From the NCBI GenBank assembly GCA_049322915.1, contig JBMOPW010000026.1:64001-128000 (forward strand): DNA of 64,000 nt, given 5' to 3'. The notes under the pieces are model-generated. The model made no database searches and was not told the origin of the DNA. It worked only from the letters and a program-made list of their open reading frames with translations. The stretch is from Candidatus Zhuqueibacterota bacterium. Its GTDB lineage: Bacteria > Zhuqueibacterota > Zhuqueibacteria > Thermofontimicrobiales > Thermofontimicrobiaceae. A program made the translations under genes and the position numbers. Below are positions 1 to 20,108 of this stretch, piece by piece; within the stretch, counting starts at the first letter, position 1; the number at the start of each line of letters is the position of its first letter.

Positions 1-140
1 TGGAAACGATATCATCCCCAACGTATCAAAGCCTTTTAAGGCTTTTTAGAGTCGACCCGGGATTGAAAATGAAATTGACATCTTCTTGTAACTTCGTGAC
101 CTAGGGACTTTGAGGCAAGAATACAAGCCTGAATAGCTAC
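1..140 (+). repeat. Right part of dispersed REP-bearing element (family A), cut by the window edge
   Basis: Aligns by eye to 18675-18811 (acgatatcat..ccaacgtatcaaa..gagtcgacccggga.tgaaaatgaaattgacatc..gcctgaatagc.ac). Confidence 0.85.
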
Positions 141-144
141 ATAT

Positions 145-183
145 TTTAACAGCAATGTAATATAAAATTAATTTAGTTGTAAT
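145..183 (+). promoter_or_regulatory. Pho-box-like direct-repeat array
   Basis: TTTAAC(145), TGTAAT(156), ATTAAT(167), TGTAAT(178) at 11-bp period, upstream of the GT-B gene. No -10 at exactly 10 bp here. Confidence 0.55.
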
Positions 184-402
184 CTATTTTTTATTTTTTA
201 TAGGCTACAGTGGTGAATTGGATGGTAACCGTTCACAGGTTCATTGTTCAAGGTTAATGCTAACGTCCAATTGATGACGGACTCTTTGAGCAGAAAAATG
301 TTTCGAGCAACTTTATCCAAAACCCCAACAGGGAACGCTGAACCCGGAACCTGTGAGCGACTAAATTGGATGAATACCATGAAATTATTGATGTGTAGTT
401 CA

Positions 403-1392
403 ATGAAAAAGAAAAAGATACTTTTCATCTGTGGCAGTTTGAATCAAACTACCATCATGTATAAAATCTATCAGCATTTAAGACATTATGATTGCCACTT
501 CACCCCGTTTTACAGCGATGGGTATTTGAATATTTTAGCCCGAAACGGATTCCTTGACTTCACCATTTTGGGCGGACAGGCCCGAATCAATACGTTGAAA
601 TTTCTCCACGAGAACCGATTGCCTCTCGATGATGGGGGCATGGGCCAAAATTATGATTTAGTGGTCACCGGCTCCGACCTGTTCATTCCAAAAAATATCA
701 TCGGAAAGAAAATTGTCCTCGTTCAGGAAGGCATGACCGACCCTGAAAACTTCAAATATTATCTGGTGAAGAATCTCCATCTGCCGCGCTATCTGGCCAA
801 CACATCTATGACCGGATTGTCCGATCAATACCAGACTTTCTGTGTAGCGTCTGAGGGATTTAAGGAACTGTTCATTCAGAAGGGCGTCAGGCCGGACAAA
901 ATCGCCGTCACCGGCATCCCGAATTTTGATAATGTCAAAGAGCATCTTCAGAATGGTTTTCAGCACAGGAATTACACGCTGGCGGTGACGTCGCATCTGC
1001 GCGAGACCTTCAAATATGAGAACCGAATAAAATTTATCGAAAATGTCGTTGACATAGCCCGGGGCAAACAGGTCATTTTCAAATTACATCCCGGGGAAAA
1101 TGTGGAACGAGCGTCCCGGGAGATCAACAAATATGCGCCGGGCAGTCTGATTTTCACGCAGGGAAACACTAATGAGATGGTCGCCAACTGCGACGTATTT
1201 GTGACGCGCTATTCCTCGGTGCTGCTGGTCGCTCTGGCGCTCAATAAACAGATCTATGCGGATGTGGATTTTGACCTGCTGAAAAAATTAACGCCCATTC
1301 AGAACGGGGGAAAGTCGGCGCGGAAAATTGCCGATATATGTGAGTATCATCTTTACCCTACAACGTCATTTAGCAAGTTTATGGCAATATAA
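403..1392 (+). CDS. GT-B fold protein, candidate CMP-nonulosonate (sialyl/KDN) transferase
   Basis: Motifs QEG, GIPNFD, KLHP and YSS resemble the E/D-E/D-G, HP and SS motifs of bacterial sialyltransferases. Start placed at MKKKKILF; the ORF is open from 244. Confidence 0.6.
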   Translation: MKKKKILFICGSLNQTTIMYKIYQHLRHYDCHFTPFYSDGYLNILARNGFLDFTILGGQARINTLKFLHENRLPLDDGGMGQNYDLVVTGSDLFIPKNIIGKKIVLVQEGMTDPENFKYYLVKNLHLPRYLANTSMTGLSDQYQTFCVASEGFKELFIQKGVRPDKIAVTGIPNFDNVKEHLQNGFQHRNYTLAVTSHLRETFKYENRIKFIENVVDIARGKQVIFKLHPGENVERASREINKYAPGSLIFTQGNTNEMVANCDVFVTRYSSVLLVALALNKQIYADVDFDLLKKLTPIQNGGKSARKIADICEYHLYPTTSFSKFMAI

Positions 1393-1502
1393 TGTATGTA
1401 TTATTATTAGCAAATCCCATATATTGGGTTAATAATGCTATGTGACGTAGTAGGGTTAATTCATTGATTCGAATGAATCATTATAGACAAGAGAGCGAGT
1501 GA

Positions 1503-2525
1503 GTGAAAAGTGAACAGGATATGTCTTTTCTGATTGTGGGACTCGGTTCCATCGGGAAAAGGCATCTGCGAAATTTGCATAGTTTGGGCGTGAAAGATAT
1601 TACTGTTGTCAGCAAGGAGATTTTTCTACAGCCTGGGGAAGAATTGCCCGAGTTTCAGACAGCGCCAAATTTATCCAAAGCGCTGGAGAGAAGGTATACC
1701 GCTGCCATCATTGCATCTCCGACAGTGAATCACCTGGAGGGAGCCTTGCAGACGGCCATGGCCGGATGCCATTTGTTCATTGAAAAACCGATATCGCATT
1801 CCATGGATGGAATTCGGACATTGACGCAAATCGTGAACCAGCGCAACCTCATTGTTCAGGTCGGCTTTCAATTTCGATTTCATCCAGCTATGTTGCAAAT
1901 AAAAAAGTGGATCGATGAAGGCGTCCTCGGGAAAATCGTTTCCGCGCATTCGCATTGGGGCGAATACCTGCCCGGCTGGCATCCCTGGGAGGACTATCGG
2001 GCCGGTTACAGTGCGCGCAGCGACATGGGCGGGGGCGTCGTGCTGACGCTGTGCCATCCTTTCGACTACCTGCGTTGGCTGTTTGGCGAGGTGAAATTCA
2101 TTTATGCCGTCGTGTCGCATTCTTCCGAACTGGAAATTGACACCGAAGATACGGCCATGTCCACGCTGAAATTCGAGTCCGGCGTTGTCGGGACCGTGTA
2201 TCTGGATTACATCGAGCGACCACCCCGGCATGATCTGGTCATCATCGGCCAAAAGGGGAAAATTACCTGGTACAATGAAACGTCGTCGGCCACCCTGTTT
2301 TCCGAGGATAAACAAGAGCCGGAGATATTTCTCCCGGCCGAGGGATTTACCCGAAACAGCATGTTCGTCGATCAGTTGGCGCATTTCATTTCGAGCATAA
2401 AAAATAACCGTACGCCGGACTGCACGCTGAGGGATGGTGTTCGCGTTCTGGAAATTGCTCTGGCCGTGAAGCAATCTTCGGACCGTTGTACCGAAGTCAA
2501 TATCACGAATAATTCCTTTATTTAG
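1503..2525 (+). CDS. Gfo/Idh/MocA family oxidoreductase
   Basis: GLGSIGKRH, EKP, GGGVVLTLCHPFDY motifs. Confidence 0.9.
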   Translation: MKSEQDMSFLIVGLGSIGKRHLRNLHSLGVKDITVVSKEIFLQPGEELPEFQTAPNLSKALERRYTAAIIASPTVNHLEGALQTAMAGCHLFIEKPISHSMDGIRTLTQIVNQRNLIVQVGFQFRFHPAMLQIKKWIDEGVLGKIVSAHSHWGEYLPGWHPWEDYRAGYSARSDMGGGVVLTLCHPFDYLRWLFGEVKFIYAVVSHSSELEIDTEDTAMSTLKFESGVVGTVYLDYIERPPRHDLVIIGQKGKITWYNETSSATLFSEDKQEPEIFLPAEGFTRNSMFVDQLAHFISSIKNNRTPDCTLRDGVRVLEIALAVKQSSDRCTEVNITNNSFI

Positions 2526-2614
2526 ATATGAATTAAACGGAAATTCCATGTGGGTATTTATACCAAATGTGGCAGTTTCCTCAAATCATGAATTAAATCA
2601 AAGGAGGTCGTTCT

Positions 2615-3031
2615 ATGAAGTATGGGACTCACGATATAGGCAAAATTCTGGGACTCCTGATGCTGTCCACCAGCCTGGTAACGATGCTTGAGAGCATTCT
2701 GGGAATTCTATTCGGAGTGAACCGAATTCTGGATTTGGGCTTTATTCTGACCGGCATTGTGGGAGTAGGACTTTATAACCACAAGAATTGGGCGCGGTTA
2801 TTCCTGCTTGGACTCTCGTATCTTGGAATAGCCGTCTCGGTGGTGATTGGAATTATCTATCCCATAAAGCCAGACATCGCAACTATTGAGACTAATTTTC
2901 GAGGACAGCTCATTGCCAATCCAGCCATGTGGAAGGTCTACATCGTTCTTGCGTTAGCGATTGTCTGCTTCGGATTGATTGCCTACTTCCTGCGGACAGA
3001 AAAAGCAAGGAGCGAGTTCAGCGTCGCTTAA
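2615..3031 (+). CDS. Hypothetical membrane protein (about 4 TM)
   Basis: AAGGAGG RBS; hydrophobic segments. Confidence 0.75.
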   Translation: MKYGTHDIGKILGLLMLSTSLVTMLESILGILFGVNRILDLGFILTGIVGVGLYNHKNWARLFLLGLSYLGIAVSVVIGIIYPIKPDIATIETNFRGQLIANPAMWKVYIVLALAIVCFGLIAYFLRTEKARSEFSVA

Positions 3032-3239
3032 TACTGTGCGGTGCAGGCCGGGCAGCATTTTTTGAATATGGCGGAGTTTTGATGGGTGTTCCGGACCGTT
3101 TAATTGATTCGAAGCAGAGGGATTGTCGATTATGAAAGACAACCTCAGCGCCGGCGTTTTTGAGTCTGACGTGCGGGTGTCATTCAAGAATCGGATAATC
3201 CAGGGACCATGAATATTAAATTTATGAAGTGAGGTATTA

Positions 3240-4028
3240 TTGATGGAAAATAAAAAAAATATTATTGCGATCATTCCGGCCCGGGGCGGCTCCAAATCGA
3301 TCCCGCGAAAGAATATCAAGTACCTGGGCGGATGTCCGCTCATTTCGTACAGCATCGCTGCCGGTTTGAGTTCAGATTACATTGACCGGGTCATTGTTTC
3401 GACCGATGATGAAGAGATCGCAGAGATTGCGCTGTACTGGGGCGCGGAAGTGCCGTTCATTCGCCCGGCTGAACTGGCAGAGGATCATGTTCTGGATCTG
3501 CCGGTGTTCGACCATGCCATCCACTGGCTTGAAACCAACGAGAAGTATCGCCCCGATATTGTCGTTCAATTGCGGCCAACAACGCCATTCCGCCCGATCA
3601 ATTGCGTGGATGAAGCCATTGAGCTATTGATGCAAAGCAATGCCGACTCCGTGCGGGGAGTCACGCCGTCCGGCCAGAATCCCTACAAGATGTGGCATGT
3701 CAAAGATAACCGAATGGTGCCGATCATGGCGACAGAATTCAAAGAGCCCTACAATATGCCGCGACAGAAACTTCCGGCGACCTTCTGGCAGACGGGCCAT
3801 GTTGAGGCAATTCGGTATGAAACGATTATGCACAAGCACAGTCTGACCGGCGATTCGATTGCGCCGCTCATCATTGCCCCGGAGTATTCCATCGATCTGG
3901 ATAATGAGTTCCAGTGGGAGTTCGCCGAGTATGTGCTGGAGCATATGGAACTGCAAATTGTTCATCCCAATGAACTGTTTCTTGATCAGCGAAAACTGGG
4001 GTCGTCCATTGCCTCTCCTGTGTGGTGA
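3240..4028 (+). CDS. neuA: Acylneuraminate (nonulosonate) cytidylyltransferase
   Basis: IIPARGGSKSIPRKN, VSTDD, LRPTTPFR, SIDLD motifs. Confidence 0.9.
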   Translation: MMENKKNIIAIIPARGGSKSIPRKNIKYLGGCPLISYSIAAGLSSDYIDRVIVSTDDEEIAEIALYWGAEVPFIRPAELAEDHVLDLPVFDHAIHWLETNEKYRPDIVVQLRPTTPFRPINCVDEAIELLMQSNADSVRGVTPSGQNPYKMWHVKDNRMVPIMATEFKEPYNMPRQKLPATFWQTGHVEAIRYETIMHKHSLTGDSIAPLIIAPEYSIDLDNEFQWEFAEYVLEHMELQIVHPNELFLDQRKLGSSIASPVW

Positions 4029-4148
4029 AATGGAGATAGGTGGAGATTGCGCTGCAACTTTCGTTTAAGTCACTTTCATCGTGAAGTCCGGCTATTGCCT
4101 GAGTGAGGCGTCGAGACTCACTATGAAATGGCGATGCCTGAGCCTGTG

Positions 4149-5270
4149 TCACGCGGCTTCTTTGGCGATGTACTGCGCGCGTGACCGGCGCAACGACACC
4201 TTCCTCATTGCGCCTTTCGAACGAAATTTCACAATAAATCGGGTGATCAGATAGAGGATGCCGCCAACTGCGAGATAGGAATAGAACGTGATGAAGCGCC
4301 ATCCGGCGGTGACCATGCCAATGGTTCGAGGCGGCAGGAAGGCCAGGAAAATCAGGTAGAACGACGCTTCCGCTCCCCCTGTGGCGCCCGGCGTTGGGAT
4401 GAAAATAGCGATTGTGTTGACCATCCATTGCAGCACAAAAAACAGGATGGGTTGGACCGGCATCCCCAGGCTGGCCACCAGCGCCGAGATCACCGAATAT
4501 CTGCAGATCCACTGAATCCCTGTCAAAATTGTCGTGATGAAAAATGTGAACTTCCCCCGCCGGATGATCACGCTGTACGCCGCTTTTAAATCATGCCCAA
4601 ATTTGAACACGCCCCGACGCACTCTTGAAAAGAATGATAGCTCGCCTTCCGGAGTATGCCGGCTGAACCACGCTGGCTTGATTTTTTTCATGATGAAATA
4701 CAACAGGAAGAGCACAATCACGAGGCTGACCACGATGATGCCCACCCAGACCATCGCCCCCTGAAGTTTATGATACGCTTTGGAAAATGTGGGGAATTTC
4801 CAGGCCGCCGTCCAGATGATGGCAAGGGGCAGCGCAACGCCTAAAAACGCGATGTCCTCGATTGTGCCAATGGATGTGATTGTGAACGCCGCGCCGGAGG
4901 ATACCCGTTTTTGCATGAGCAATCCAATTTTCAAGGGAGCGCCGCCGATGGCTGAGGGACTTATCGCTGCGCTCAATTCGCTGTAAAAAATGATTTTCAG
5001 GCTCTGGAAGAACGATAATTTCCGTTTGAAAAAGTGCGCCCATAGCTTCAATCGAAACACATTGGTGAACCAGGGAATAATGATCAACAGGATAGCGAGC
5101 AGAAAATAGTGGAATGAAAAATTGATCACGGAAACCAGAGCTGTTTTATCCTTTGTGAAAATGGTAAGTCCAAGATTGATGAAGATACCAAGGGGAATGA
5201 TGAAAATGAATTTCTTCACAAGTTTGGAGAGATCGAAATTTGATGGTTGTGAATTGATTGACTTCTTCAA
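4149..5270 (-). CDS. Lysylphosphatidylglycerol-synthase TM / flippase-like membrane protein
   Basis: Multi-TM; SPSAIGG, PTPGATGGAE, WRFITFY motifs; TTG start with GGAG RBS. Confidence 0.85.
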   Translation of the reverse strand: MKKSINSQPSNFDLSKLVKKFIFIIPLGIFINLGLTIFTKDKTALVSVINFSFHYFLLAILLIIIPWFTNVFRLKLWAHFFKRKLSFFQSLKIIFYSELSAAISPSAIGGAPLKIGLLMQKRVSSGAAFTITSIGTIEDIAFLGVALPLAIIWTAAWKFPTFSKAYHKLQGAMVWVGIIVVSLVIVLFLLYFIMKKIKPAWFSRHTPEGELSFFSRVRRGVFKFGHDLKAAYSVIIRRGKFTFFITTILTGIQWICRYSVISALVASLGMPVQPILFFVLQWMVNTIAIFIPTPGATGGAEASFYLIFLAFLPPRTIGMVTAGWRFITFYSYLAVGGILYLITRFIVKFRSKGAMRKVSLRRSRAQYIAKEAA

Positions 5271-5488
5271 TTATAGTTGTCTCCGAAAATGATGATTCCG
5301 CTGTAATGAACCAGGATGGGTAGCTGGCTCTGATCCGCAGCGAATGTCTGAGTCCGATCTGCGTTGGGGACGCCCGCGGCGCCCGCGATGAATGAACGAG
5401 GCGCTGCGCCAGCGATTATTTTTGCCTGACTGCCAGTTCCCATGTGGCAGCAGGTGTTCGCCCTGTCTGCAATTGGTAAAACATCTTC

Positions 5489-5532
5489 AAAATAGATAAT
5501 TCATTTTACAGAACTGTTACATTGCGATTACA
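5489..5532 (-). promoter_or_regulatory. Pho-box-like array plus -10
   Basis: Minus strand TGTAAT-N5-TGTAAC-N5-TGTAAA (5532-5505), then 10 bp, then TATTTT (5494-5489). Confidence 0.7.
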
Positions 5533-5605
5533 GATTATTGAAGTCTCAGCGCCGGCTGAAAATCGTTCTGAAATTCACACCGTTGTTATGAAAAGTACGC
5601 TGAAA

Positions 5606-5649
5606 TATAACCCGGGTGTAACAAAACCGTAACGTGCTTCCATTAAATT
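5606..5649 (+). promoter_or_regulatory. Pho-box-like array plus -10
   Basis: TATAAC-N5-TGTAAC-N5-CGTAAC (5606-5633), then 10 bp, then TAAATT (5644-5649). Confidence 0.7.
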
Positions 5650-5693
5650 TCTGACTAATATTTTAATTTTAACATTTTTTAGAAGCGAAGTGC

Positions 5694-6506
5694 ATGAAGA
5701 CAACTGATTTATTTATCATTCAAGGCCGAGTGGCCATCGTCACGGGAGCGCTGGGACTCATTGGGAAGCATCACTGTTCTGCATTAGCCGAAGCCGGCGC
5801 CCAAGTGGTGGCGTGCGATGTGGATGAACAGAGGTGCCAGCGTTATGCTGAGTTACTGCCAACCGATTCCATCGGCGTTGGCGTGAATGTGACCGACCCT
5901 GAGTCGATCGCCCGAATGAAAGAGATCGTGCTGAATCGCTTCGGTCACGTGGATGTGCTGGTGAATAACGCGGCGATCAATGATATGTTCGAGACGCCGG
6001 CGCTCGCAGCCGAGAAATCGAAATTTGAAAATTATCCTCTGGACATGTGGCAAAAGATGCTGAATGTGAACGTGACCGGCATTTTCCTTTGTGCGCAGCA
6101 GATTGGCGCGGAGATGGCGAAACAGGGACATGGCAGTATCATCAATATAGCATCCACCTATGGCATCGTGGCGCCGGATCAGTCCATTTATAAAGACCGG
6201 CAGGGAAAACAACTGTTTTTCAAATCGCCGGCCTACCCGACGACAAAGGGGGCGGTGATTGCCTTCACCAAATTTTTGGCCGCCTATTGGGGAACCGCTG
6301 GTGTGCGGGTGAATACGCTGTCGCCCGGCGGGGTGGAAAACGGACAGGATGATTTTTTTGTGACGAATTATTCAACCAGGACGCCGCTGGGCAGAATGGC
6401 AAAACCGACAGATTACAAAGGCGCGCTGCTGTTCCTTGCCAGCGATGCCTCAAGTTATATGACAGGCGCAAATTTGGTAGTAGATGGAGGATGGACGGCA
6501 TGGTAG
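5694..6506 (+). CDS. SDR family oxidoreductase
   Basis: TGALGLIG, NNAA, YPTTK, VDGG motifs. Confidence 0.9.
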   Translation: MKTTDLFIIQGRVAIVTGALGLIGKHHCSALAEAGAQVVACDVDEQRCQRYAELLPTDSIGVGVNVTDPESIARMKEIVLNRFGHVDVLVNNAAINDMFETPALAAEKSKFENYPLDMWQKMLNVNVTGIFLCAQQIGAEMAKQGHGSIINIASTYGIVAPDQSIYKDRQGKQLFFKSPAYPTTKGAVIAFTKFLAAYWGTAGVRVNTLSPGGVENGQDDFFVTNYSTRTPLGRMAKPTDYKGALLFLASDASSYMTGANLVVDGGWTAW

Positions 6507-7054
6507 CACCGGGAGACAATCGAAGAAAAGCGCGGGGAATAAAATTAGTCATCACTGATTGCGACGGCGTTTTGACGGATAACGGCGTGTATTATTCCGA
6601 ACGCGGCGAGGAAATGAAGCGCTTTTCCATCCGCGACGGGATGGGCGTGGAACGGCTGCGCACCGTGGTCAATGTGGAAGTCGCCATCATTTCCGGTGAA
6701 AAGTCGGGATCGCTGATTAAACGGGCGGAGAAACTCAACATCACCGAACTGCATCTTGGTGTGCGGGACAAAGTGAAAGTGGTTGATGACCTCGTCCAGA
6801 GAATGAATATCGCATTGGAAAATGTAGCATACATCGGCGACGACACCAACGATGTGGAAGTGATGCAGCACGTTGGGTTGTCGGCCTGCCCCACCGATGC
6901 AACGTCATTTGCCAAAGCCGTGGCGGACTATATCTGCCGCAGCAAAGGCGGCGATGGTGCGTTCCGCGATTTTGCCGAATACATCATTGCAGCAAAGAAA
7001 TCTTTTAATAAAGCCCTAATTGGAAATGAAGATGGTGAACTGACCGTTTCATAG
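6500..7054 (+). CDS. KdsC-family HAD phosphatase (candidate KDN-9-phosphate phosphatase)
   Basis: DCDGVLTD, FSIRDGMG, GDDTND, GGDGAFRDF; directly upstream of neuB. Confidence 0.85.
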   Translation: MVAPGDNRRKARGIKLVITDCDGVLTDNGVYYSERGEEMKRFSIRDGMGVERLRTVVNVEVAIISGEKSGSLIKRAEKLNITELHLGVRDKVKVVDDLVQRMNIALENVAYIGDDTNDVEVMQHVGLSACPTDATSFAKAVADYICRSKGGDGAFRDFAEYIIAAKKSFNKALIGNEDGELTVS

Positions 7055-7086
7055 TTTAAAACCTTGAAAGGGAGGTTATCGGAACA

Positions 7087-7998
7087 ATGAGAAAACAGAT
7101 TAAGGTTGGTAAGCATACTATTGGTGAAGGTGAACCAACATTTGTGATTGCTGAAATAGGCATAAATCACAATGGCTCTCTTGAAATTGCAAAAAAAATG
7201 ATTGAAGGAGCTAAGTTCGCTGGATGCGATGCAGTCAAATTTCAGAAACGGACGCCTGAGTTGTGCGTGCCGTACGATCAATGGAATATCGAGCGGGACA
7301 CCCCGTGGGGCCGCATGACCTATATCGATTATCGCCATCGCATCGAATTTGACGCTGAACAGTTTGCTGAAATAGACCGGTTCTGTAAAGAGAAGGACAT
7401 CATCTGGTTCGCATCGTGCTGGGATGAGGAATCCGTCGATGTGATTGAACAATTCGACCCACTGCTCTATAAAGCGTCATCTGCGTCGTTGACGGATCAC
7501 GGGCTTTTGAAAAAAATGAAAAGCACCGGCAAACCACTCATCGTTTCCACGGGCATGTCGCAGATGGAAGAAATTCAGGAAGCCGTGACAATGCTGGGGA
7601 ATGAAAATTTAGCCATCGCGCACTCCACATCGGCCTATCCCTGCAAACCGGAGGAACTGAATTTGAAAATGATCAGGACGCTCATGGATATTTACCCGGT
7701 CCCGGTTGGCTATTCCGGCCACGAAGTCGGGCTGGCGCCGACATGGACGGCGGTGACGCTGGGCGCAACGTTTGTGGAACGGCACATTACGCTGGACAGA
7801 GCCATGTGGGGAACGGACCAGGCCGCATCCGTGGAAATTATCGGTATGTCACGTCTGGTGCACAATATCCGCGTCATTGAATTGGCTCTCGGCGATGGCA
7901 TCAAACGCGTTTATCCCAGCGAAGTTCAGGTGCGACAGAAGCTCCGTCGCAATCAAAATAATCATGACCAGGTGGATGTGGTTTCAATGGTCAATTGA
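7087..7998 (+). CDS. neuB: NeuB-family nonulosonate synthase, short form without C-terminal AFP-like domain
   Basis: IAEIGINHNG, AVKFQKR, GYSGHE, ERHITLDR. Confidence 0.9.
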   Translation: MRKQIKVGKHTIGEGEPTFVIAEIGINHNGSLEIAKKMIEGAKFAGCDAVKFQKRTPELCVPYDQWNIERDTPWGRMTYIDYRHRIEFDAEQFAEIDRFCKEKDIIWFASCWDEESVDVIEQFDPLLYKASSASLTDHGLLKKMKSTGKPLIVSTGMSQMEEIQEAVTMLGNENLAIAHSTSAYPCKPEELNLKMIRTLMDIYPVPVGYSGHEVGLAPTWTAVTLGATFVERHITLDRAMWGTDQAASVEIIGMSRLVHNIRVIELALGDGIKRVYPSEVQVRQKLRRNQNNHDQVDVVSMVN

Positions 7999-8136
7999 AC
8001 GAGCCGGGTATGGGCGTGGACGATTGATTGCTTGCAGTCCAGACAAGGGTTCGCGTATCGTTGTTCTCATTAAAAGTTGATGCACATATTAAAACGCCGA
8101 GTTTGAAACCGAACAATGCAAAGGATGCTATAGTCA

Positions 8137-9069
8137 ATGAAAATTGCTCACCTGTCCGATCTGCATATTTGCCAGAAATCGCGACCCGGGAATATTAAAA
8201 ATACTGAACTTCTCCTTCAATACGCTCTGGCCCAGGGAACAGATCATTTTGCCATCACCGGGGATCTGATTCACCTGGCCAATGATGATGATTTTTACGA
8301 ACTACGAACCCTGTTTAACAAATACGATTTGATGGATCCGGCCAGACTGACCCTTGTCATCGGAAATCACGATATTTATGGCGGCGTTCATCTGGCGGAA
8401 GATGTGGTTAAATTCCCGCAGACTTGTCTCAATGTCGATTACAACAAGAAGGTTGAAAGTTTTAATAAATACTTTTTTGAAGCGTTTGAAAATTGCTATG
8501 TCTATTCAACAGAAATGGGATATCCCTTTGTCAAGACGATTGATAATGTCGCGCTGATCGGCATTAATTCTACCACGCATTATTCCATTTTGAAAAATCC
8601 ATTCGCTTCAAAAGGGTTTGTGAATAAATATCAGATCGCCGGCATCAGGCATATCATGGGTCGGTTGCATCAGCAGAACAAAGTGAAAATTGTGATGATG
8701 CATCATCATTTCAAACGGCAAAATCTGAATGATTCATTGTTTCGGAATTCCATGTTGAAGAACGTCGAAGACCTGGCGAATAATCTCTGGCGCAAGAACA
8801 GATTGCTGAAAGTTCTGCGGCGCTACAAGGTGGACTTGATTCTCCATGGCCATGAACACTATTCCGGCGAGTACGTGCACCGCAAGTTGCACATGTTGAA
8901 CGCAGGCGGAAGCATTGACAAAAACGAACCGGGCGAATTGAAGATCAATTTCATCGATGTTGATGGCAATACCTACCGTACCGAAATACGGACACTTCGC
9001 ATTCACGAGATGATGACTTTAAAAAATGTGGCCAGGGAACATTCGGAGCAAGGTGTACTCGTCAGTTGA
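8137..9069 (+). CDS. Metallophosphoesterase (CpdA/Icc-like)
   Basis: SDLH, TGD, GNHD, HHH, HGHEH motifs. Confidence 0.88.
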   Translation: MKIAHLSDLHICQKSRPGNIKNTELLLQYALAQGTDHFAITGDLIHLANDDDFYELRTLFNKYDLMDPARLTLVIGNHDIYGGVHLAEDVVKFPQTCLNVDYNKKVESFNKYFFEAFENCYVYSTEMGYPFVKTIDNVALIGINSTTHYSILKNPFASKGFVNKYQIAGIRHIMGRLHQQNKVKIVMMHHHFKRQNLNDSLFRNSMLKNVEDLANNLWRKNRLLKVLRRYKVDLILHGHEHYSGEYVHRKLHMLNAGGSIDKNEPGELKINFIDVDGNTYRTEIRTLRIHEMMTLKNVAREHSEQGVLVS

Positions 9070-9216
9070 AATAAATTTACAGGCCCCCCCCTTTAAATGA
9101 GCCACTTGAAGAGGCAGAAGCTGCCATGCAATATCCTGATTGTTTGTGATGATGGCAGATGCTTCAACAGCGGCAGTGATGAACCGATCATTTTGATTCC
9201 ACTATTTTCTCTTTAG

Positions 9217-9377
9217 CCTGCATTATTCATAGTATTTTTAAAGGAGGCTGGCTAAATTGAATGGTGCTCTTTTTAGAATAACCGTACAAAAACTGAGTTT
9301 CAAAATAGCTTAGCTTTTAGCTAATTGAAAATCTGAATGTTGACTCAAATTCTGAGCAAGTTCATGAATAATTCAGG
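9217..9377 (+). mobile_element. 161-bp MITE (IS1380-like ends), copy 1
   Basis: TIRs CCTGCATTATTCAT / ATGAATAATTCAGG, flanked by TTAG direct repeats; near-identical inverted copy at 36851-37011. Confidence 0.85.
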
Positions 9378-9416
9378 TTAGAGCATTTACAGTTCAATGC
9401 GTCTCTTTCTCAATTC

Positions 9417-9457
9417 AAAAAACCATTCCCGTGTTGACGCGGGGATGGTTTTTTTTT
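9417..9457 (+). terminator. Intrinsic terminator
   Basis: aaaaaaccattcccgtg..cgcggggatggtttttttt hairpin with U tract. Confidence 0.8.
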
Positions 9458-9528
9458 GTCAGAGTGAAACATCTGTCGGATTGGACCAGGACCGTCGCCC
9501 GAACCCTTTCAAAAGGAACGCTTCAAAA

Positions 9529-9583
9529 CTTAAAGCGAATGTCATATCGATGAAATAGGGCTGTTACATTACCTGAGTATAAT
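9529..9583 (+). promoter_or_regulatory. Pho-box-like array plus perfect -10
   Basis: CTTAAA(9529), TGTCAT(9540), TGAAAT(9551), TGTTAC(9562), then 10 bp, then TATAAT (9578-9583). Confidence 0.72.
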
Positions 9584-9635
9584 GATGTCAAAACCATGCA
9601 GTCCATGTTTCGCATTATAAATGGGAGAAGCAAAA

Positions 9636-9845
9636 ATGAAGAAAAGCGAAAAGATTTTGAGCATGAAACAGAACTCAACCAATGATGGTTCATTGTGGTA
9701 TTTATACGCAGCGCTCGAACCTGCGAAATGGTTGAAATGCTATACCGACCTCATTGAACTGAATGAGCGACGGAAACAGGTTGACGGTAAAAAAAATTCC
9801 ACCAACCCACAACACTTCAGAGAGCCGCTTTTCGAATTAAAGTAA
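9636..9845 (+). CDS. Small hypothetical protein (69 aa; alternative start 9621)
   Basis: GGAG RBS before ATG 9636; has its own promoter array upstream. Confidence 0.6.
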   Translation: MKKSEKILSMKQNSTNDGSLWYLYAALEPAKWLKCYTDLIELNERRKQVDGKKNSTNPQHFREPLFELK

Positions 9846-10177
9846 TCTTCTGGATGCATCTATCAAAGGATACTTTTCCAACAATTTGTAAAAACAGAGG
9901 CGCAATCAACTTGTGATGTGGCATTAACATTTTTGTGGACAACTTGTGGATAAGTTGGTAAAAGATAAGTTTTTCTTTTGTCATGGCTTTGTAATACAAA
10001 TGCAATTATTTAATCTTTTAAAAAATAGTCAATTATAAAACAGGGGGTTCCTGAGAACCTGTGGCGATCAAACAGCAGCGATAATCCTGGGTGTGAATTA
10101 GTGGGTTTATCCCATGAAAAAATCGAGTCATAGGACGGTCAGGTGCATTGTGGAACATGCAGGGAATCGATATTCGG

Positions 10178-11401
10178 TCACTGCACAAGGCTGAAGACGA
10201 AGCGGGAATTGAGTCGGTTGTAGTGGATTTTTATTTTGCCAAATTGAATTTCCACGTAACGACGATCCACAAACCGGAGTTCCCCGGCGAACTCATCGAT
10301 GAGTTGCAGCGCCTGGGGAGTGCCATTGTACGATTCGCCCAGTTCACTGATCATCTCCATCAATTTGGATTTGTAGCGCTCGCCGCGGGCCAGAAATTTC
10401 AGAACAGCTTCAGGAGATAGCCGGTCGATCTCAATCGATTCGCCGAACCCGCTCAGATTGAGCGCCATCCCGTTGATTTTTTGTTCAATATCATTCAACT
10501 TGGGGAATGCCAGGATTGGCTTGCCGAGGTAAATGGCCTCGCCAATCACCTGATTGCCGGCCGTGCAAATCAATCCGCGGGATGTAGCCAGCGACGAAAT
10601 GAATTTTTCCGGATGAATATGGATGAGCTTAATATGTCGGCATCGTGTTGGCTTTGTCTTCAGAGACGACCAGTCTGAAAAAACTTCGAAACGGATATGG
10701 CTCAATTGCTGAATGACCGGCAAAAGCTTCTGCAGATAAAACGGCTCTTTCAAATACACGGTAATGTGATTCCGCTCCTCGGGAGTGGTGTTTTGAACAG
10801 CGTCGGAAAGAAATGGCCCGACAAAAACCGCGCGACTGTCGCGAAGCTTCGGGAAATGAAAGAACGAGCTGGTCACAATTCGATCCGGTTTCGCTGACAG
10901 GATTCTGATAAACAGCTTGAACAAACTGAGTTTCACCCGGTTGCGGATGGATGTCATTGGGGGAATTTCCGATTCGAGCAACATGTGCTGATGATCGATC
11001 AGGATGACCGGAATTTTCTGGACATTGGCAATTTTCAATAAATAGGGCTCGAAGTCGCTGATGATGAAATCCGGATTTTGAAAGAGAACCTCCTGGTAAA
11101 TTTGCCGGTATTTTTTCCCAAGCCCGAAGATGAGTCCCCAGAAGAGCGAAAAGTTTTTGACGGAAATTTTCCACAGATTGATCCCGCCTTTTTTCCCGGT
11201 ATACAATCGGAATGTGGGGATTTGGATGGACGGAATGCTGTTATAGTTCAACAGCGGAAGGGCATCACCGCCGCCAAATACAAGCACTTCATGTCCGGCA
11301 TTTTTTAATTGTTTGATTATTTGAATGCTGCGGGAGGTATGGCCCCGGCCTTCGCCCTGAATTCCGTAGACAATTTTCTTTGGCGTGTCAGTAGTTAGCA
11401 T
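10178..11401 (-). CDS. Glycosyltransferase, MJ1255/VC2487 (GT-B) family
   Basis: GEGRGHTSR, SDFEP, IDHQH, TAGNQVIGEA, EQKING. Confidence 0.88.
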   Translation of the reverse strand: MLTTDTPKKIVYGIQGEGRGHTSRSIQIIKQLKNAGHEVLVFGGGDALPLLNYNSIPSIQIPTFRLYTGKKGGINLWKISVKNFSLFWGLIFGLGKKYRQIYQEVLFQNPDFIISDFEPYLLKIANVQKIPVILIDHQHMLLESEIPPMTSIRNRVKLSLFKLFIRILSAKPDRIVTSSFFHFPKLRDSRAVFVGPFLSDAVQNTTPEERNHITVYLKEPFYLQKLLPVIQQLSHIRFEVFSDWSSLKTKPTRCRHIKLIHIHPEKFISSLATSRGLICTAGNQVIGEAIYLGKPILAFPKLNDIEQKINGMALNLSGFGESIEIDRLSPEAVLKFLARGERYKSKLMEMISELGESYNGTPQALQLIDEFAGELRFVDRRYVEIQFGKIKIHYNRLNSRFVFSLVQ

Positions 11402-11552
11402 ATCAGAACCTGTTTTCCAGTGGTGTAAAGTATGTCAGTATCGAATACGTGTATTGGCCTCGCCGACTGGCACCGAATCATGGCCACGGATGCCGCCGCA
11501 TACAGTCGCCGGCGCCCTGACGCCTGGTTGGCCGGCGTCAGCATTACATGAG

Positions 11553-11744
11553 TTAGAGCAGGTGAAACCAGAAAAAATTATCAGCCGCCAGGCTGCTGCT
11601 GCCAATGTCAGGGCGCAGGTCATTGCCGGGCTCGTTGCCTTCGGCTGACCTCTCCAGCTTGCGTTTTGCCGATAACAGCAACCGGCGCTGAAACTGATTT
11701 ATTTTCAGGGATTGTTTCGATAAATCCGATGATGGTCTGTTCAT
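11553..11744 (-). CDS. Small hypothetical protein (63 aa)
   Basis: AAGAGG RBS before MNRPSS; lies between the promoter array and the GT gene. Confidence 0.5.
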   Translation of the reverse strand: MNRPSSDLSKQSLKINQFQRRLLLSAKRKLERSAEGNEPGNDLRPDIGSSSLAADNFFWFHLL

Positions 11745-11807
11745 GGATTTTCCTCTTTTTCTTTCACAGTCAAACACAAATTGGATCGATGAATGAAGCG
11801 TTGATAC

Positions 11808-11862
11808 ATGGTAAAAAAACAAGGTTAACTCTATGTTGACTCCATTTTACAATCGTATGAAC
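11808..11862 (-). promoter_or_regulatory. Pho-box-like array plus -10
   Basis: Minus strand GTTCAT, TGTAAA, GTCAAC, GTTAAC at 11-bp period, then 10 bp, then TACCAT (11813-11808). Confidence 0.6.
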
Positions 11863-11871
11863 TAAAATTGA

Positions 11872-11926
11872 ATTCACGGAAACTTAAAGATTTTGTAACC
11901 TGGAATTCATGCATTTCTGGCATATT
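11872..11926 (+). promoter_or_regulatory. Pho-box-like array plus -10
   Basis: ATTCAC(11872), CTTAAA(11883), TGTAAC(11894), ATTCAT(11905), then 10 bp, then CATATT (11921). Confidence 0.6.
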
Positions 11927-11934
11927 GATGCTTC

Positions 11935-12771
11935 ATGAGGAATAAAAAAGATAGCATTAGGAAAAGGGTTGTGCAGACTTCATCGAATCAGATTAACAGA
12001 ATCCAGCGTTTGGTCATAAACGTCTTGCTGCTTTTTGGGGGGCGTCTCATAAAAGTCGAGAATGCGTCCCGATTCACATCGCCCGAAGACCCGGTCATCT
12101 ATGCCTTCAATCATAACAATGCGTTTGAGACGGTATTAATCCCGGCCTACCTGATACGTGCCCGCCGTTGGAAAAAGGTGAGTTTCATCATCGATTGGAT
12201 GTACGGAAAAATTCCGCTCGTGGGTTGGTTCTGCCGTCAGACCGAGCCGGTCTATGTGTATAACAAACGCGCTAGGTTTAAACTGTACGAGCGCTTTCGG
12301 CTTCAGCATCGCAGCGAGGATGTATTCGTGAAAATCATAGAAAAACTGAACCAACAGCGGAGCATTGGAATTTTCCCTGAAGGAAAAAGAAACAAGAATC
12401 CGTACATCTTGCGACGGGGATTCAACGGCGTGGGGTATATCGCCCTGATGGCCAAAGCGCCGGTGATCCCGGTGGGAATAGAATTTCAGTCGAGTCGCAA
12501 GAAGGGCAAAATGCCTGGCGTCGGTCGATTTATCTTGCGCGTTGGTGAACCGAGGATTTTCGCGCAGGCAATTCACCAGGTCGAGCAAATTGAACGGGAT
12601 GATTCAATCGATCCGCACGCGAAAAAGAAACTCATCCATTTTCATGCAAGTGAAGTGACCTATCACATCATGATGGACATCAGTAGACTGTCGCGAAAAG
12701 AATATCCATATCTCGCTCCATCATTGGCGGAAAATTTTGAAAAACATATCTTTTCAGAAATTATGAGGTGA
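11935..12771 (+). CDS. PlsC-family lysophospholipid acyltransferase
   Basis: NHNNAFE (HX4E variant), IFPEGKR, PVIPVGI. Confidence 0.85.
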   Translation: MRNKKDSIRKRVVQTSSNQINRIQRLVINVLLLFGGRLIKVENASRFTSPEDPVIYAFNHNNAFETVLIPAYLIRARRWKKVSFIIDWMYGKIPLVGWFCRQTEPVYVYNKRARFKLYERFRLQHRSEDVFVKIIEKLNQQRSIGIFPEGKRNKNPYILRRGFNGVGYIALMAKAPVIPVGIEFQSSRKKGKMPGVGRFILRVGEPRIFAQAIHQVEQIERDDSIDPHAKKKLIHFHASEVTYHIMMDISRLSRKEYPYLAPSLAENFEKHIFSEIMR

Positions 12772-12774
12772 GCC

Positions 12775-13434
12775 ATGGCAAAAATTACAGTTGTCAAGAT
12801 TCTCAATTCGGAGACCCGAAAGAAGGCGTTTGAGGTCATCGAACAGGTGTATCTGCAGGAGAAGAACTGGATTTATTCCGTTCAGAATGAAATCCCGGAA
12901 GACGTTGCCACCAACGAACGGTATTCCTGGTTTCTCGCGTCGGTCAATGGAAAGCCGGCCGGCGTGCTGCGTCTTTATTACGATCCGCCACTGGAATTTC
13001 CGGCGGACTTCAAGGTGACGTTGCACAGGGATGTGGATCTGAAGGCTTTTGCTGCGACGTGCCGATTCGTTGAAATTGGCCGGTTCATGATTCTCAGGGA
13101 ATATCGGAAAAAAATATTGGTCGCACTCCGACTCATGCGCATTGCAATTCGGGAAGTGGTGCAGCGCGACTACACTCATTTCATCACCGATGTTTTTGAA
13201 AATGAACCGAACTCGCCCCTGCAATTTCACACCAGGGTGCTGGGATTTGAAGTCATTGGCACCCATCTCCATGGCGAATTGAATTGCAGTCTGACAAGGA
13301 TTATTCTGACGCTGGATATTTTAAAAGCGTATCAGCGGCTGCGGGAGCGAAACAACAGAATTTACTGGAGTCTCACCCGGGGTATTCGTGGCGCGCTGAA
13401 CAAGAAACTGGCTGCTCAGGTGAAACCTGTATGA
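12775..13434 (+). CDS. GNAT-fold N-acyltransferase (N-acyl amino acid synthase / FeeM-like)
   Basis: VYLQEKNW, GVLRL, VEIGRFMILREYR, LGF; starts 3 bp after the acyltransferase. Confidence 0.7.
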   Translation: MAKITVVKILNSETRKKAFEVIEQVYLQEKNWIYSVQNEIPEDVATNERYSWFLASVNGKPAGVLRLYYDPPLEFPADFKVTLHRDVDLKAFAATCRFVEIGRFMILREYRKKILVALRLMRIAIREVVQRDYTHFITDVFENEPNSPLQFHTRVLGFEVIGTHLHGELNCSLTRIILTLDILKAYQRLRERNNRIYWSLTRGIRGALNKKLAAQVKPV

Positions 13435-13539
13435 TCGTTGATGCTATTTCAAAAGAAGATTTTATAAAAATTGGAACTCATTATGGTTACAATGGTATGA
13501 TGCCATATATTTTATCAATTCAACTTTAGGTGAAATTAA

Positions 13540-14925
13540 ATGAAAAATAAACTTCAGGAATTGTTGTATGCAATTGTTTTGGGAATGATGCTGAATTTCA
13601 CGGCGGCCGGTCTGGCGAATGGAGCCGGAATTCCCAAAAACATCATCATTATGATCGGCGATGGCTGCGGCTACAATCATGTAGTCGCCACGAATTACTA
13701 TCAAACTGGCGAAGCCGGGGCGCAGGTTTATGAGAAATTTCCTGTCACGCTTGGTATGAGCACCTATTCGGCCAGCGGCGATGGATATGATCCGACAAAG
13801 GCATGGACTGATTTTAGTTATGTGACGCATCGACCCACTGATTCGGCGGCTGCGGCAACGGCAATGTCCACCGGTGTGAAGACGAACAATGGAGCGATTG
13901 GCGTCGATGAAAAAAAACATCGGCTGGAACATTTGGTCGAGCATCTGGAGAAATTCGGAAAATCAAGCGGGGTCGTCACCACCGTGATGTTTTCGCACGC
14001 GACCCCGGCCGGTTTCATTGCGCATCAGGAACGCCGCGATCAATACTCTGACATCGCCCGCGAGATGATTCTGGATAGTCCGCTGGAAGTGATCATGGGC
14101 TGTGGCCATCCGCATTACGATGACAATGGCCGTCTGCTGGAACAGGCCAAATTCGACTACACCTACGTCGGCGGCGATGACGTCTGGCAGGCGCTGAAGC
14201 AGGGCAGAGTGGAGTCCGATTCAGATACCGATGGTGTGAAAGACACGTGGCATCTCATCGAGACGCGGCAGGAATTTCTTGCGCTCGGATCCGGGGACAC
14301 GCCAAAGCGCGTGATCGGAGTACCCCGGGTGAGGATGACCCTGCAGCACGAACGCGCCGGCAATAAAAAGACAGAGCCGTTTGTCGATCCCCTGGTTCAG
14401 GACGTTCCCACTTTACCGGAGATGACGGCGGCAGCGCTGAATATTCTGGACAATGACGCTGATGGATTTTTTCTGCTCATCGAAGGAGGCGCAATCGATT
14501 GGGCTGGCCATGAAAATAACTCCGGCCGCATGATCGAAGAGACCATCGATTTCAACAAAGCGGTCGATGCGGTCGTCGCCTGGATTAACGAATCCAGCTC
14601 GTGGGATCAAACCCTGCTCGTAGTCACCGCTGATCATGAAACCGGTTACCTCACCGGCCCGGGATCTGGCGAACAGGACAAAATGGGCGATAGCGCGGTG
14701 AAACCGATCTGGAATCCGATAGTGAACAACGGCCAGGGCAAGTTGCCGGGACTGGAATGGCATATCACCAAACATACGAACTCACTGGTGCCATTCTATT
14801 CGAAAGGAGCCGGGTGCGAATTATTTTTGAAGTATGCTGATGAAACTGATGCAGTCTGCGGCGCCTACCTGAATAACATTGAAATTGCTCAGGCCATTTT
14901 CGCTCTTTTTCCAACGGCTCAATAA
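13540..14925 (+). CDS. phoA: Alkaline phosphatase (PhoA family)
   Basis: Signal peptide; IGDG, TDSAAAATA, HATPA, EGGAIDWAGH, TADHETG. Confidence 0.92.
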   Translation: MKNKLQELLYAIVLGMMLNFTAAGLANGAGIPKNIIIMIGDGCGYNHVVATNYYQTGEAGAQVYEKFPVTLGMSTYSASGDGYDPTKAWTDFSYVTHRPTDSAAAATAMSTGVKTNNGAIGVDEKKHRLEHLVEHLEKFGKSSGVVTTVMFSHATPAGFIAHQERRDQYSDIAREMILDSPLEVIMGCGHPHYDDNGRLLEQAKFDYTYVGGDDVWQALKQGRVESDSDTDGVKDTWHLIETRQEFLALGSGDTPKRVIGVPRVRMTLQHERAGNKKTEPFVDPLVQDVPTLPEMTAAALNILDNDADGFFLLIEGGAIDWAGHENNSGRMIEETIDFNKAVDAVVAWINESSSWDQTLLVVTADHETGYLTGPGSGEQDKMGDSAVKPIWNPIVNNGQGKLPGLEWHITKHTNSLVPFYSKGAGCELFLKYADETDAVCGAYLNNIEIAQAIFALFPTAQ

Positions 14926-15041
14926 GATGAAATTTTAAATTCACTGGAACATTCGCTGTTTGACTTCGTAATTCGAGCATTATCAAAACGAACAACTGTG
15001 ATTCTGTTATGCGAGGTAGACAGAGGATGAAAGGAGATCCC

Positions 15042-17267: not shown

Positions 17268-17396
17268 TTCGGGCGCGCCCGAACTCGGCGAGACAGACTC
17301 AACGACGCAATGCGCGTTCGTCCCTTGCGAAATCGTGATGTTGCGACAGGGCAGAGTAACACTGAAAATAGAAACGATCATTTTGAGGAATAGACT

Positions 17397-18287: not shown

Positions 18288-18362
18288 GCTTTAATTACCT
18301 GGTGACTTTTTTCAATGCAAGGCTTTTTATGTAGAGTGCAAACTCTTACAGTTAGTATCCGG

Positions 18363-18811
18363 GTTACTATTCAGCCTCAGAGTCTCAAGGCTCAAAGAAA
18401 ATGAAATTGCCAAACTGATCGATTCTGAAAAGCTGAATTTGGTTTTAAAAATGAAATTGAATTTCACAGTATCAGAATGAGTCGGCGCTAAAAAGGGGCT
18501 AAAGCAGATGCAAGATGCAAGACGCAAGATGCGAGACGTAGAATGAGTCCCCTCTAAAAAGGGGCTAACGCCCAAAAATCAAAGATGAATTTCTGTTCCC
18601 CGACTTAAAAGTCGGGGCTATTCAAGGTGTCTGACTTTTAACTTTTTCAATGAATTGCCACGTCATTGATGACGTGGTAACGATATCATAACCAACGTAT
18701 CAAAGGCTTTTCAGAGTCGACCCGGGAATGAAAATGAAATTGACATCACCATCACCATGTTGCTTCGTGGCCTGGTGACTTTAAGGCAAGACTACACGCC
18801 TGAATAGCGAC
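18363..18811 (+). repeat. Family A REP-bearing element, longest copy
   Basis: Imperfect TIRs GTTACTATTCAGCC / GCCTGAATAGCGAC; internal palindromes CCCCGACTTAAAAGTCGGGG (18598-18617) and CCACGTCATTGATGACGTGG. Confidence 0.85.
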
Positions 18812-18888
18812 GAAAATTCTCTCTAACCTGGAACCGGGAACCTTTAAACCTGGAACCTGAGTAGTAACAATTTTGCATGTTACACACG

Positions 18889-19995: not shown

Positions 19996-20108
19996 GTTCA
20001 ATTCCCTCCGCAAGTAAAGTGCAAAACGTATACACTATTCCCTTTTATAAGTTTTGAATATCCACGAAGCGCACGAAGAATTGCAACTGTTTTGTCGTTT
20101 GCAGGACT

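Follow-up and report, generated by a model that had tools for sequence, protein, structure and literature searches.

A putative Pho-regulon island in a Zhuqueibacterota genome with a candidate pathway to a phosphorus-free, nonulosonate-bearing envelope component

Introduction

We describe a gene island of ~17 kb (positions 144 to 17267) in which genes for phosphate scavenging, enzymes for phosphorus-free lipids, and a nonulosonate operon lie side by side. The island belongs to a Candidatus Zhuqueibacterota bacterium (assembly GCA_049322915.1), and positions refer to the 64,000 nucleotides from 64,001 to 128,000 of contig JBMOPW010000026.1, referred to here as "the window." On balance, we think it somewhat probable that this is a Pho-regulon island that makes a phosphorus-free acidic sugar for the cell envelope, with a membrane lipid or a lipid-linked molecule as the favored acceptor. 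Swapping phosphate-rich envelope parts for phosphorus-free acidic ones is a major survival route under phosphate scarcity, and the known surrogates are uronic-acid glycolipids, sulfolipids, and aminolipids, together with teichulosonic acid in Streptomyces. Here, the Pho regulon of several diderm phyla appears to take in a sialic-acid-like sugar pathway together with an uncharacterized transferase-like family; among these phyla are groups often met in sediments, groundwater, and wastewater. If this is true, thousands of GT-B proteins now annotated as "hypothetical" would gain a function, and bacterial nonulosonic acids would gain a role beyond host mimicry. The idea is directly testable because the carriers include records named for cultured species or strains, namely, Ignavibacterium album (a metagenome-assembled genome), Rosettibacter firmus, and several Sorangium strains.

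The concept of phosphorus-free acidic surrogates has precedents in teichulosonic acid, PlcP-Agt glycolipids, and Caulobacter GSL-2. Teichulosonic acid of Streptomyces contains ketodeoxynononic acid (KDN). In the accessible text of PMC8003754, it is a phosphorus-free acidic wall polymer that replaces a phosphate-rich one under phosphorus limitation, together with the Pho regulon; Streptomyces is, however, a monoderm, the product is linked to peptidoglycan, and the enzymes differ from those of the island. PlcP-Agt clusters of marine and soil bacteria are fronted by Pho boxes and place a phosphoesterase next to glycosyltransferase genes or others that serve phosphorus-free lipid synthesis, which allows phospholipid replacement under phosphorus stress (available portion of PMC4796936). 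The island resembles them in its Pho boxes and in having a phosphoesterase beside phosphorus-free lipid genes, but the clusters, as presented in that portion, lack nonulosonate genes and yield monoglycosyldiacylglycerol (MGDG), glucuronic acid diacylglycerol (GADG), and diacylglyceryl trimethylhomoserine (DGTS), and the window metallophosphoesterase is likened to PlcP by fold and family only. In Caulobacter, the PhoB-regulon transferases Sgt1 and Sgt2 make GSL-2, an anionic phosphorus-free glycolipid with a hexuronic acid on ceramide, under phosphorus starvation; unlike in the island, the acid sugar is a hexuronic acid taken from a UDP-sugar, the transferases are of family GT4, and no CMP-sugar pathway appears in the text available for this system (PMC6445935). 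The gpgSDF operon of Pseudomonas aeruginosa glycosylates lipid head groups and, in the accessible sections of PMC12713373, includes a stand-alone MprF-type flippase-like gene, a precedent for the similar gene of the island, although the gpgSDF sugar is GlcNAc or GlcN on phosphatidylglycerol and the window flippase lies far below the GpgF cut-off. Literature searches found no paper on the operon treated here or on a nonulosonate lipid, in agreement with the original prediction, made from the DNA letters alone, that no described pathway has this combination of genes.

Results and discussion

Gene content of the island

Scans with Pfam and NCBIfam models recovered every gene class named in the original prediction, each where it had been placed. 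The island opens, on the plus strand, with a 329-aa protein of GT-B fold from an uncharacterized family (403 to 1392; structure model and alignment of homologues). Its open reading frame (ORF) begins at TTG 244, and the start is most likely ATG 403 because 32 homologues align only from that codon. On the same strand follow a Gfo/Idh/MocA oxidoreductase (1503 to 2525; Pfam and NCBIfam) and a NeuA/PseF-like nonulosonate cytidylyltransferase of the CTP_transf_3 family (3240 to 4028; PF02348, 73.5 bits versus a cut-off of 22.6), which remains below the PseF equivalog cut-off of NCBIfam (157.3 versus 205.7 bits). Close homologues of the Gfo protein adjoin the related operon at L016, L036, and L204 (L numbers denote related loci, G numbers denote genomes, with G000 for the host genome, and C numbers denote contigs). 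Between the two genes is a 138-aa hypothetical membrane ORF (2615 to 3031, plus strand) with no family at threshold; it is doubtful, and may be no real gene, because it is absent in L016, where the gap between Gfo and cytidylyltransferase is ~60 bp.

A stand-alone MprF-type flippase-like membrane protein (LPG_synthase_TM) is read from the minus strand (4149 to 5270; PF03706, 98.8 versus 33.4 bits; TIGR00374, 79.1 versus 43.2 bits) and fails the equivalog for the GlcN-phosphatidylglycerol flippase GpgF (80.8 bits versus 320). Four plus-strand genes come next. The first encodes a short-chain dehydrogenase/reductase (SDR) similar to gluconate-5-dehydrogenase and KduD (5694 to 6506; Pfam and NCBIfam), and the second encodes a HAD phosphatase of the KdsC/KDN-9-P type (6491 to 7054), which passes the wider KdsC/YrbI subfamily model TIGR01670 (152.7 versus 106.95 bits) and is just under the cut-off for KDN-9-P phosphatase (NF058599, 169.1 versus 180 bits). 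The third product is a 303-aa NeuB-family synthase without an SAF domain (7087 to 7998; PF03102, 247.4 versus 22.1 bits); it fails the N-acetylneuraminate synthase equivalog TIGR03569 (243.5 versus 399.65 bits), with a match that stops at model position 279 of 329. The fourth, a metallophosphoesterase (8137 to 9069; PF00149, 66.8 versus 21.5 bits), had no match among solved structures in a sequence search and is a putative PlcP-like phospholipase C or phosphodiesterase.

The remainder of the island combines lipid and phosphate genes. An MJ1255/VC2487-family GT-B glycosyltransferase (10178 to 11401, minus strand; PF13528, 157.6 bits) is under the TIGR00661 cut-off (120.7 versus 195.9 bits). Reading from the plus strand are a PlsC-type O-acyltransferase (11935 to 12771; PF01553, 63.9 bits), a FeeM/GNAT N-acyl amino acid synthase-like protein (12775 to 13434; PF21926, 37.2 versus 27 bits), the alkaline phosphatase PhoA (13540 to 14925; PF00245, 200.3 bits), and a TonB-dependent receptor (15009 to 17267; Pfam), which starts 84 bp after PhoA and probably shares its transcription unit. 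PhoA is the sole copy detected in the genome with that query. To judge from their families, PlsC would have an OlsA/GlsA-like role and the GNAT protein an OlsB/GlsB-like role; no NCBIfam model, the OlsB and GlsB models included, matched the GNAT protein at an E value of 0.001. Pfam and NCBIfam annotation found no aminotransferase, acetyltransferase, or amino-sugar gene in the block. An Rfam search of window positions 1 to 20000 at an E value of 0.1 returned no match, and scans for sigma-70 promoters and terminators gave nothing usable.

Pho-box-like arrays in the host genome

The arrays of 11-bp period that the original prediction had pointed out are real. Inspection of intergenic sequence, together with patterns and matrices, resolved them into degenerate KTAAY units, with KTAACA as the best form, at exact 11-bp spacing. 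Tandem Repeats Finder reported no 11-bp array in the block because only ~5 to 6 of the 11 positions are conserved, so that regular expressions and position matrices were required. Three intergenic regions (144 to 198, 5501 to 5637, and 11820 to 11863) hold arrays and head five transcription units. One matrix (pst-only) was trained on six units from the pst/phoBR region of contig C7, and a second (block-only) was built from ten block units and scored over three adjacent units.

Upstream of the GT-B gene, an array of ~5 units (144 to 198, plus strand) scores 16.9 bits with the pst-only matrix and 26.7 bits with a combined matrix, and its positions 146 to 190 form the sole perfect four-unit array that a simple pattern finds in the 6.25-Mb genome. 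The second region has one array facing the flippase-like gene (5501 to 5533, minus strand; 14.1 bits pst-only, 27.5 combined) and another facing the SDR-HAD-NeuB-metallophosphoesterase genes (5605 to 5637, plus strand; 16.0 bits pst-only, 21.5 combined). The strongest array lies where the MJ1255 transferase and PlsC genes diverge (11820 to 11863, minus strand) and, at 25.5 bits, is the top non-training site genome-wide for the pst-only matrix. A weaker one (9539 to 9571, plus strand; 17.9 bits with the combined matrix) falls within a 1.1-kb stretch of low GC content (0.39) that holds no ORF of at least 80 aa (9070 to 10177; ORF and composition scan). That stretch also contains an inverted repeat followed by a run of nine T at ~9423 to 9458 and a 74-aa ORF at 9621 to 9845.

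Arrays of the same kind precede phoU-pstSCAB (C7:416580) and a TonB-dependent receptor (C7:409820), and one more (C7:408805) occupies the divergent region between an M28 peptidase-pstS2 operon and a PAP2 gene. The PhoU encoded with pstSCAB is above its curated cut-off, and the same region of C7 encodes a response regulator whose best NCBIfam match is PhoB (264.2 bits versus a cut-off of 296.2), with a PhoR/PnpS-like kinase, 3.5 kb from pstS2. As a side observation, this PhoU, the product of the first gene of the pst operon (L008 4761 to 5912, C7), is fused to a domain resembling low-molecular-weight phosphatase or arsenate reductase. A two-unit pattern occurs 127 times genome-wide on both strands, with 5 occurrences in the block and 6 in the 28-kb pst/phoBR region. 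With a threshold of 16 bits, the pst-only matrix marks 24 distinct sites in the genome; 4 are in the pst region and 3 in the 15-kb block, which makes up 0.24% of the genome. The reverse test, with the block-only matrix, ranks C7:409820 and C7:408805 among its top three sites outside the block.

Under low phosphate, a PhoB-type regulator, for which the PhoB/PhoR-like pair beside pstS2 on C7 is the candidate, would bind the KTAACA direct repeats spaced every 11 bp. Five units would be induced: the GT-B, Gfo, and cytidylyltransferase genes; the flippase-like gene; SDR, HAD, NeuB, and metallophosphoesterase; the MJ1255 glycosyltransferase; and PlsC, GNAT, PhoA, and the TonB-dependent receptor. We infer this induction, as we do the identity of the sugar, the activity of the GT-B protein, and the acceptor. 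In parallel, phospholipid head groups or diesters would yield phosphate through the metallophosphoesterase, phosphorus-free glycolipids and aminolipids would come from the MJ1255 transferase and the PlsC/GNAT pair, and PhoA with the TonB-dependent receptor would scavenge phosphate.

A related operon in other phyla

A scan with the NeuB protein, with one genome per species, returned 80 loci at ~66 to 88% identity. The loci are labeled Ignavibacteria, Kapaibacteria, Chloroherpetonaceae/Thermochlorobacter, Nitrospirota, Bacteroidota, Bdellovibrionota, and Sorangium. Genes at these loci, many of which end at contig edges, were counted by tblastn with reference proteins (E value of 1e-5, at least 40% coverage). 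The genes typically run in the order GT-B, cytidylyltransferase, (transketolase), aminotransferase, SDR, HAD, NeuB, and hydroxylase, and the corresponding counts are 65/80 for SDR, 63/80 for a class-III aminotransferase, 55/80 for a KdsB-like cytidylyltransferase, 54/80 for the HAD phosphatase, 53/80 for GT-B, 52/80 for an OlsE-like FA_hydroxylase, and 42 and 37 of 80 for the C and N parts, respectively, of a split transketolase. Less frequent are the metallophosphoesterase (14/80, no more than 10 kb from NeuB), OlsF (11/80), a small multidrug resistance (SMR)-type protein (10/80), PstS (8/80), the M28 peptidase (7/80), and PhoA (2/80). The window-type cytidylyltransferase (3/80), Gfo (2/80), and the flippase-like protein (2/80) are rarer still.

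The window carries a rarer variant, without aminotransferase, transketolase, and hydroxylase; it has instead Gfo, the PseF-like cytidylyltransferase, and the divergent flippase-like gene. L016, L036, and G022/L204 share this variant and its two array positions, and the flippase-like gene lies within the cluster in the window, L016, L036, L204, and L205. A further variant (G017, C5, L202; G048, C7, L203) comprises NeuB, GT-B, a DegT aminotransferase, an iron-containing alcohol dehydrogenase (Fe-ADH), cytidylyltransferase, HAD, and LysE and diverges from M28-PstS. A metallophosphoesterase and a second GT-B gene diverge from the usual operon in G024 and share one operon in L207, and GT-B adjoins a flippase-like gene in G010. 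Within the class of the window, 8 of 61 sampled genomes carry GT-B. The most telling neighborhood is that of L094, where a PlsC-like acyltransferase, PhoA, an array, the full operon, OlsF, and a metallophosphoesterase follow one another. Conservation of the neighborhood across phyla, which the original prediction had proposed as a check, was therefore found in part: the neu operon with GT-B recurs, whereas the PlsC/GNAT pair and the MJ1255 transferase do not. Two minor observations concern NeuB itself. The host has a second neu-like pair (C14:725150-727008), consisting of a cytidylyltransferase 45% identical to that of the window and a NeuB match in a 503-aa frame, and a cupin fusion is seen in a 496-aa NeuB homologue of L205.

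Probable phosphate control beyond the host

Arrays also precede the related operons. With the pst-only matrix, 21 of 51 loci have a site of at least 14 bits in the 200 bp before the GT-B start, mostly at a distance of 50 to 105 bp. By comparison, such sites occur in 0.76% of 4485 other 200-bp windows and in 12 of 440 regions upstream of other genes in the same loci; a Fisher value for 21/51 versus 12/440 overstates the contrast, given the kinship among the genomes. No Sorangium-type locus reaches the array score upstream of GT-B with this matrix. Five carrier genomes with an array before GT-B were tested for sites near PstS-like genes: those of L030, L035, and L094 have arrays upstream (23.8, 31.9, and 27.0 bits), and the remaining two have only weak sites. 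Arrays precede OlsF in six loci (L019, L024, L050, L059, L077, and L087).

These results bear on whether the arrays might instead be bound by another OmpR-family regulator, such as one for envelope stress, so that the block would not be phosphate controlled and the proximity of PhoA and PstS would be accidental. Two findings speak for this and weigh against Pho control. In other genomes of the same class, the block-only matrix finds an array in only 2 of 18 pstS-upstream regions (3 kb), and past the best approximately seven sites, the genome-wide matches in the host adjoin unrelated genes (FGGY kinase, DNA methylase, MntP, secretin, and others). Few of the 20 genes beside the next-best sites are phosphate related, namely, the TonB receptor beside pst, a metallophosphoesterase, and ExbB. 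The same-class pstS loci, examined with 1.5-kb flanks and leaving out one unpublished genome, have a site of at least 14 to 15 bits in 4 of 28 cases and of at least 16 bits in 2 of 28. Because of the 2/18 result, the identity of the array as a Pho box rests on this genome and three others. On the other side, the motif precedes phoU-pstSCAB and M28-pstS2 in the host and PstS-like genes in three other carrier genomes, and PhoA, PstS, and M28 recur beside the operon in separate lineages, which makes a different regulator quite improbable in our view. The phosphate-starvation control that the original prediction assigned to the block is thus supported by pst-type arrays in the host, by arrays that precede the related operon in other phyla, and by the recurrent phosphate genes, and Pho control is well supported at the sequence level in at least four genomes.

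Separately from the block, three-unit KTAAY arrays stand before and inside an exopolysaccharide cluster of the host (C39:29213-29245 and 38285-38328; L010), which encodes Wza, Wzc, a sugar transferase, a pyruvyl transferase, and GT2 proteins. This cluster may make another Pho-linked acidic polymer, or the arrays may be there by chance.

A KDN-type sugar as the probable product

The product of the neu genes is probably a CMP-activated KDN-type sugar that is placed on the envelope. A nonaminated sugar of this type, derived from a hexose phosphate, is the simplest reading because NeuB lacks the SAF domain, the HAD enzyme is nearest the KDN-9-P phosphatase model, and amino-sugar genes are missing from the block. 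The KDN-type sugar of the original prediction accords with this, since the neu genes fit a nonaminated acid that arises from a sugar phosphate and is activated by CTP. NeuB would condense phosphoenolpyruvate with a hexose phosphate, probably mannose-6-phosphate, and the HAD enzyme would remove the phosphate to leave the KDN-type acid. SDR and Gfo would then remodel one hydroxyl, and the cytidylyltransferase would form the CMP-sugar.

Two known pathways frame this proposal. The CMP-KDN pathway of Bacteroides thetaiotaomicron, represented here by model NF058599, starts from a sugar phosphate with a NeuB-type synthase and continues with a dedicated phosphatase of the HAD type and a cytidylyltransferase; the window shares these three enzyme types, its phosphatase scoring just under the cut-off of that model, and adds SDR, Gfo, GT-B, and the Pho boxes. 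In the Kdo8N (8-amino-3,8-dideoxyoctulosonic acid) pathway of Shewanella, KdnB and KdnA oxidize a ulosonic acid at one position and then transaminate it. The operon variants elsewhere are alike in pairing SDR with the class-III aminotransferase (63/80) or Fe-ADH with the DegT aminotransferase (L202), but the window has no aminotransferase and its synthase is of the NeuB rather than the KdsA type. The window SDR is nearest the gluconate-5 and KduD-type dehydrogenases, and the pairing of SDR or Fe-ADH with an aminotransferase suggests, by analogy, oxidation followed by amination in the variants that have one. In the window, Gfo occupies the place of the aminotransferase.

The GT-B family: transferase or NeuC-like enzyme

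The GT-B protein, conserved in the operon, is the candidate for transfer of the CMP-sugar to an envelope acceptor at the inner membrane face, the flippase-like protein then moving the product outward. Its AlphaFold2 model (mean predicted local distance difference test score, 90.5) has the GT-B fold, and the family alignment has QEG at 108 to 110, HP at 229 and 230, and S271 as invariant residues. Bacterial sialyltransferases (GT38, GT52, and GT80) combine a GT-B fold with D/E-D/E-G and HP motifs. The family comprises at least 6369 sequence clusters, mostly annotated as "hypothetical protein"; the nearest clusters in the ESM Atlas are "hypothetical protein" as well, with one "putative UDP-N-acetyl glucosamine 2-epimerase." The host also has a second GT-B paralogue (C30:12893-13840; 49% identical), far from neu genes and between an unannotated 824-aa ORF and a URO-D-like gene, and G035 has a similar lone copy.

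The original prediction had called this protein sialyltransferase-like. The fold is modeled as foreseen; the label itself is only one reading, as the best structural matches of the model are UDP-GlcNAc 2-epimerases and NeuC. The protein could accordingly be a NeuC-like hydrolase or epimerase of a nucleotide sugar that supplies NeuB with its aldose, the true transferase being encoded elsewhere and the acceptor left open, a reading that we consider unlikely. It would explain the sub-threshold Epimerase_2 matches in 31 of 33 family members and an HP motif that aligns with that of the host's own WecB-like epimerase. That profile comparison is marginal, however: only the HP region aligned, over 79 columns, with an E value of 0.038. 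No Pfam family, PF02350 included, reaches its cut-off for the GT-B protein, which counts against a firm assignment as a transferase; the other sub-threshold matches among the 33 members are to TagF-type (25/33), capsule synthesis (3/33), and polysialyltransferase (2/33) families. Several findings speak against the NeuC-like role. The KDN-9-P/KdsC-type phosphatase found in 54 of 80 loci suggests that the substrate is phosphorylated, so that no NeuC would be required. In addition, two GT-B paralogues share one locus, of which one is paired with a metallophosphoesterase (L207), and a lone paralogue lies far from neu genes (C30). Removal of GT-B would also leave an otherwise self-contained operon without a transferase. 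For these reasons, a transferase that uses the CMP-sugar is the favored assignment for the family.

Lipid or glycan as the acceptor

The original prediction had coupled the neu genes specifically to PlsC with GNAT and to the MJ1255 transferase. This coupling is not conserved: over the 80 loci, PlsC has one weak match, and GNAT and the MJ1255 transferase have none, a result that also tells against the lipid acceptor favored here. The same absence fits an alternative in which the CMP-sugar, under the same Pho control, goes to a glycan (lipopolysaccharide core or O-chain, capsule-like polymer, or surface glycoprotein) as a phosphorus-free acidic substitute and the lipid genes are merely coregulated. 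Teichulosonic acid genes of Streptomyces lividans, which are upregulated with the Pho regulon in the available text of PMC8003754, are a precedent for such an acceptor. Other points in its favor are the TagF-type, capsule, and polysialyltransferase matches given above, the single weak match of the GT-B profile to a solved structure, that of a TagF-like (capsule) polymerase (E value of 0.00088), and two GT9 heptosyltransferase-like genes upstream of the operon in L024. We nevertheless regard a glycan acceptor as rather unlikely, though less so than the NeuC-like role. The conserved operon has no polysaccharide export or polymerase set, and it is accompanied instead by a membrane di-iron hydroxylase (52/80), an SMR protein (10/80), or a flippase-like protein. 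It is also present in Sorangium records, and one Sorangium strain is described in the title of a paper, the part of that source available here, as being without lipopolysaccharide.

A lipid acceptor is favored from genes of the related loci. The OlsE-like FA_hydroxylase, a membrane di-iron protein, starts 1 bp after NeuB in L024; it matches OlsE best, with 118.8 bits, well short of the cut-off of 475. OlsF, above its cut-off (719 versus 620 bits), and a metallophosphoesterase adjoin the operon in the Ignavibacterium group, and SMR or flippase-like proteins are found in other operon variants. The host genome has no OlsE-like hydroxylase or OlsF homologue at an E value of 1e-8 and 50% coverage.

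More tentatively, and with low confidence, the operon might define a new class of phosphorus-free membrane lipids with a nonulosonic acid head group, replacing phosphatidylglycerol and cardiolipin under phosphorus starvation. In this genome, the head group would be of the KDN type, and most other carriers would have an aminated one. Diacylglycerol, a hydroxylated ornithine-type aminolipid, and ceramide are conceivable acceptors, and the carriers would be Ignavibacteria, Nitrospirota, Bacteroidota, Chlorobi-like bacteria, and Sorangium. A long-unexplained aminoglycosphingolipid of Chlorobium reportedly has neuraminic acid as its head group, and the aminated form could be this lipid. It was reported in 1991, as cited in the accessible text of PMC11762602. 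We keep this link open because four of the five Chlorobi-labeled genomes with HAD-NeuB-hydroxylase carry a full GT-B gene elsewhere.

Other observations

An alpha-oxoamine synthase in the window (61482 to 62798) was considered as a serine palmitoyltransferase (Spt) and rejected, as it is a glycine C-acetyltransferase. A serine palmitoyltransferase-like gene is present on another contig (C14:171851-173014), with the Spt CFB model as its best NCBIfam match (573.5 versus a cut-off of 640 bits); the organism may therefore make sphingolipids. A second envelope cluster of the window (38582 to 51583) contains four GT2 genes with weaker matches to GT21, the ceramide glucosyltransferase family, along with a methyltransferase, a second LPG_synthase_TM flippase-like gene (41463 to 42545), a class-V aminotransferase, a Wzi-like protein, and a radical SAM/SPASM protein.

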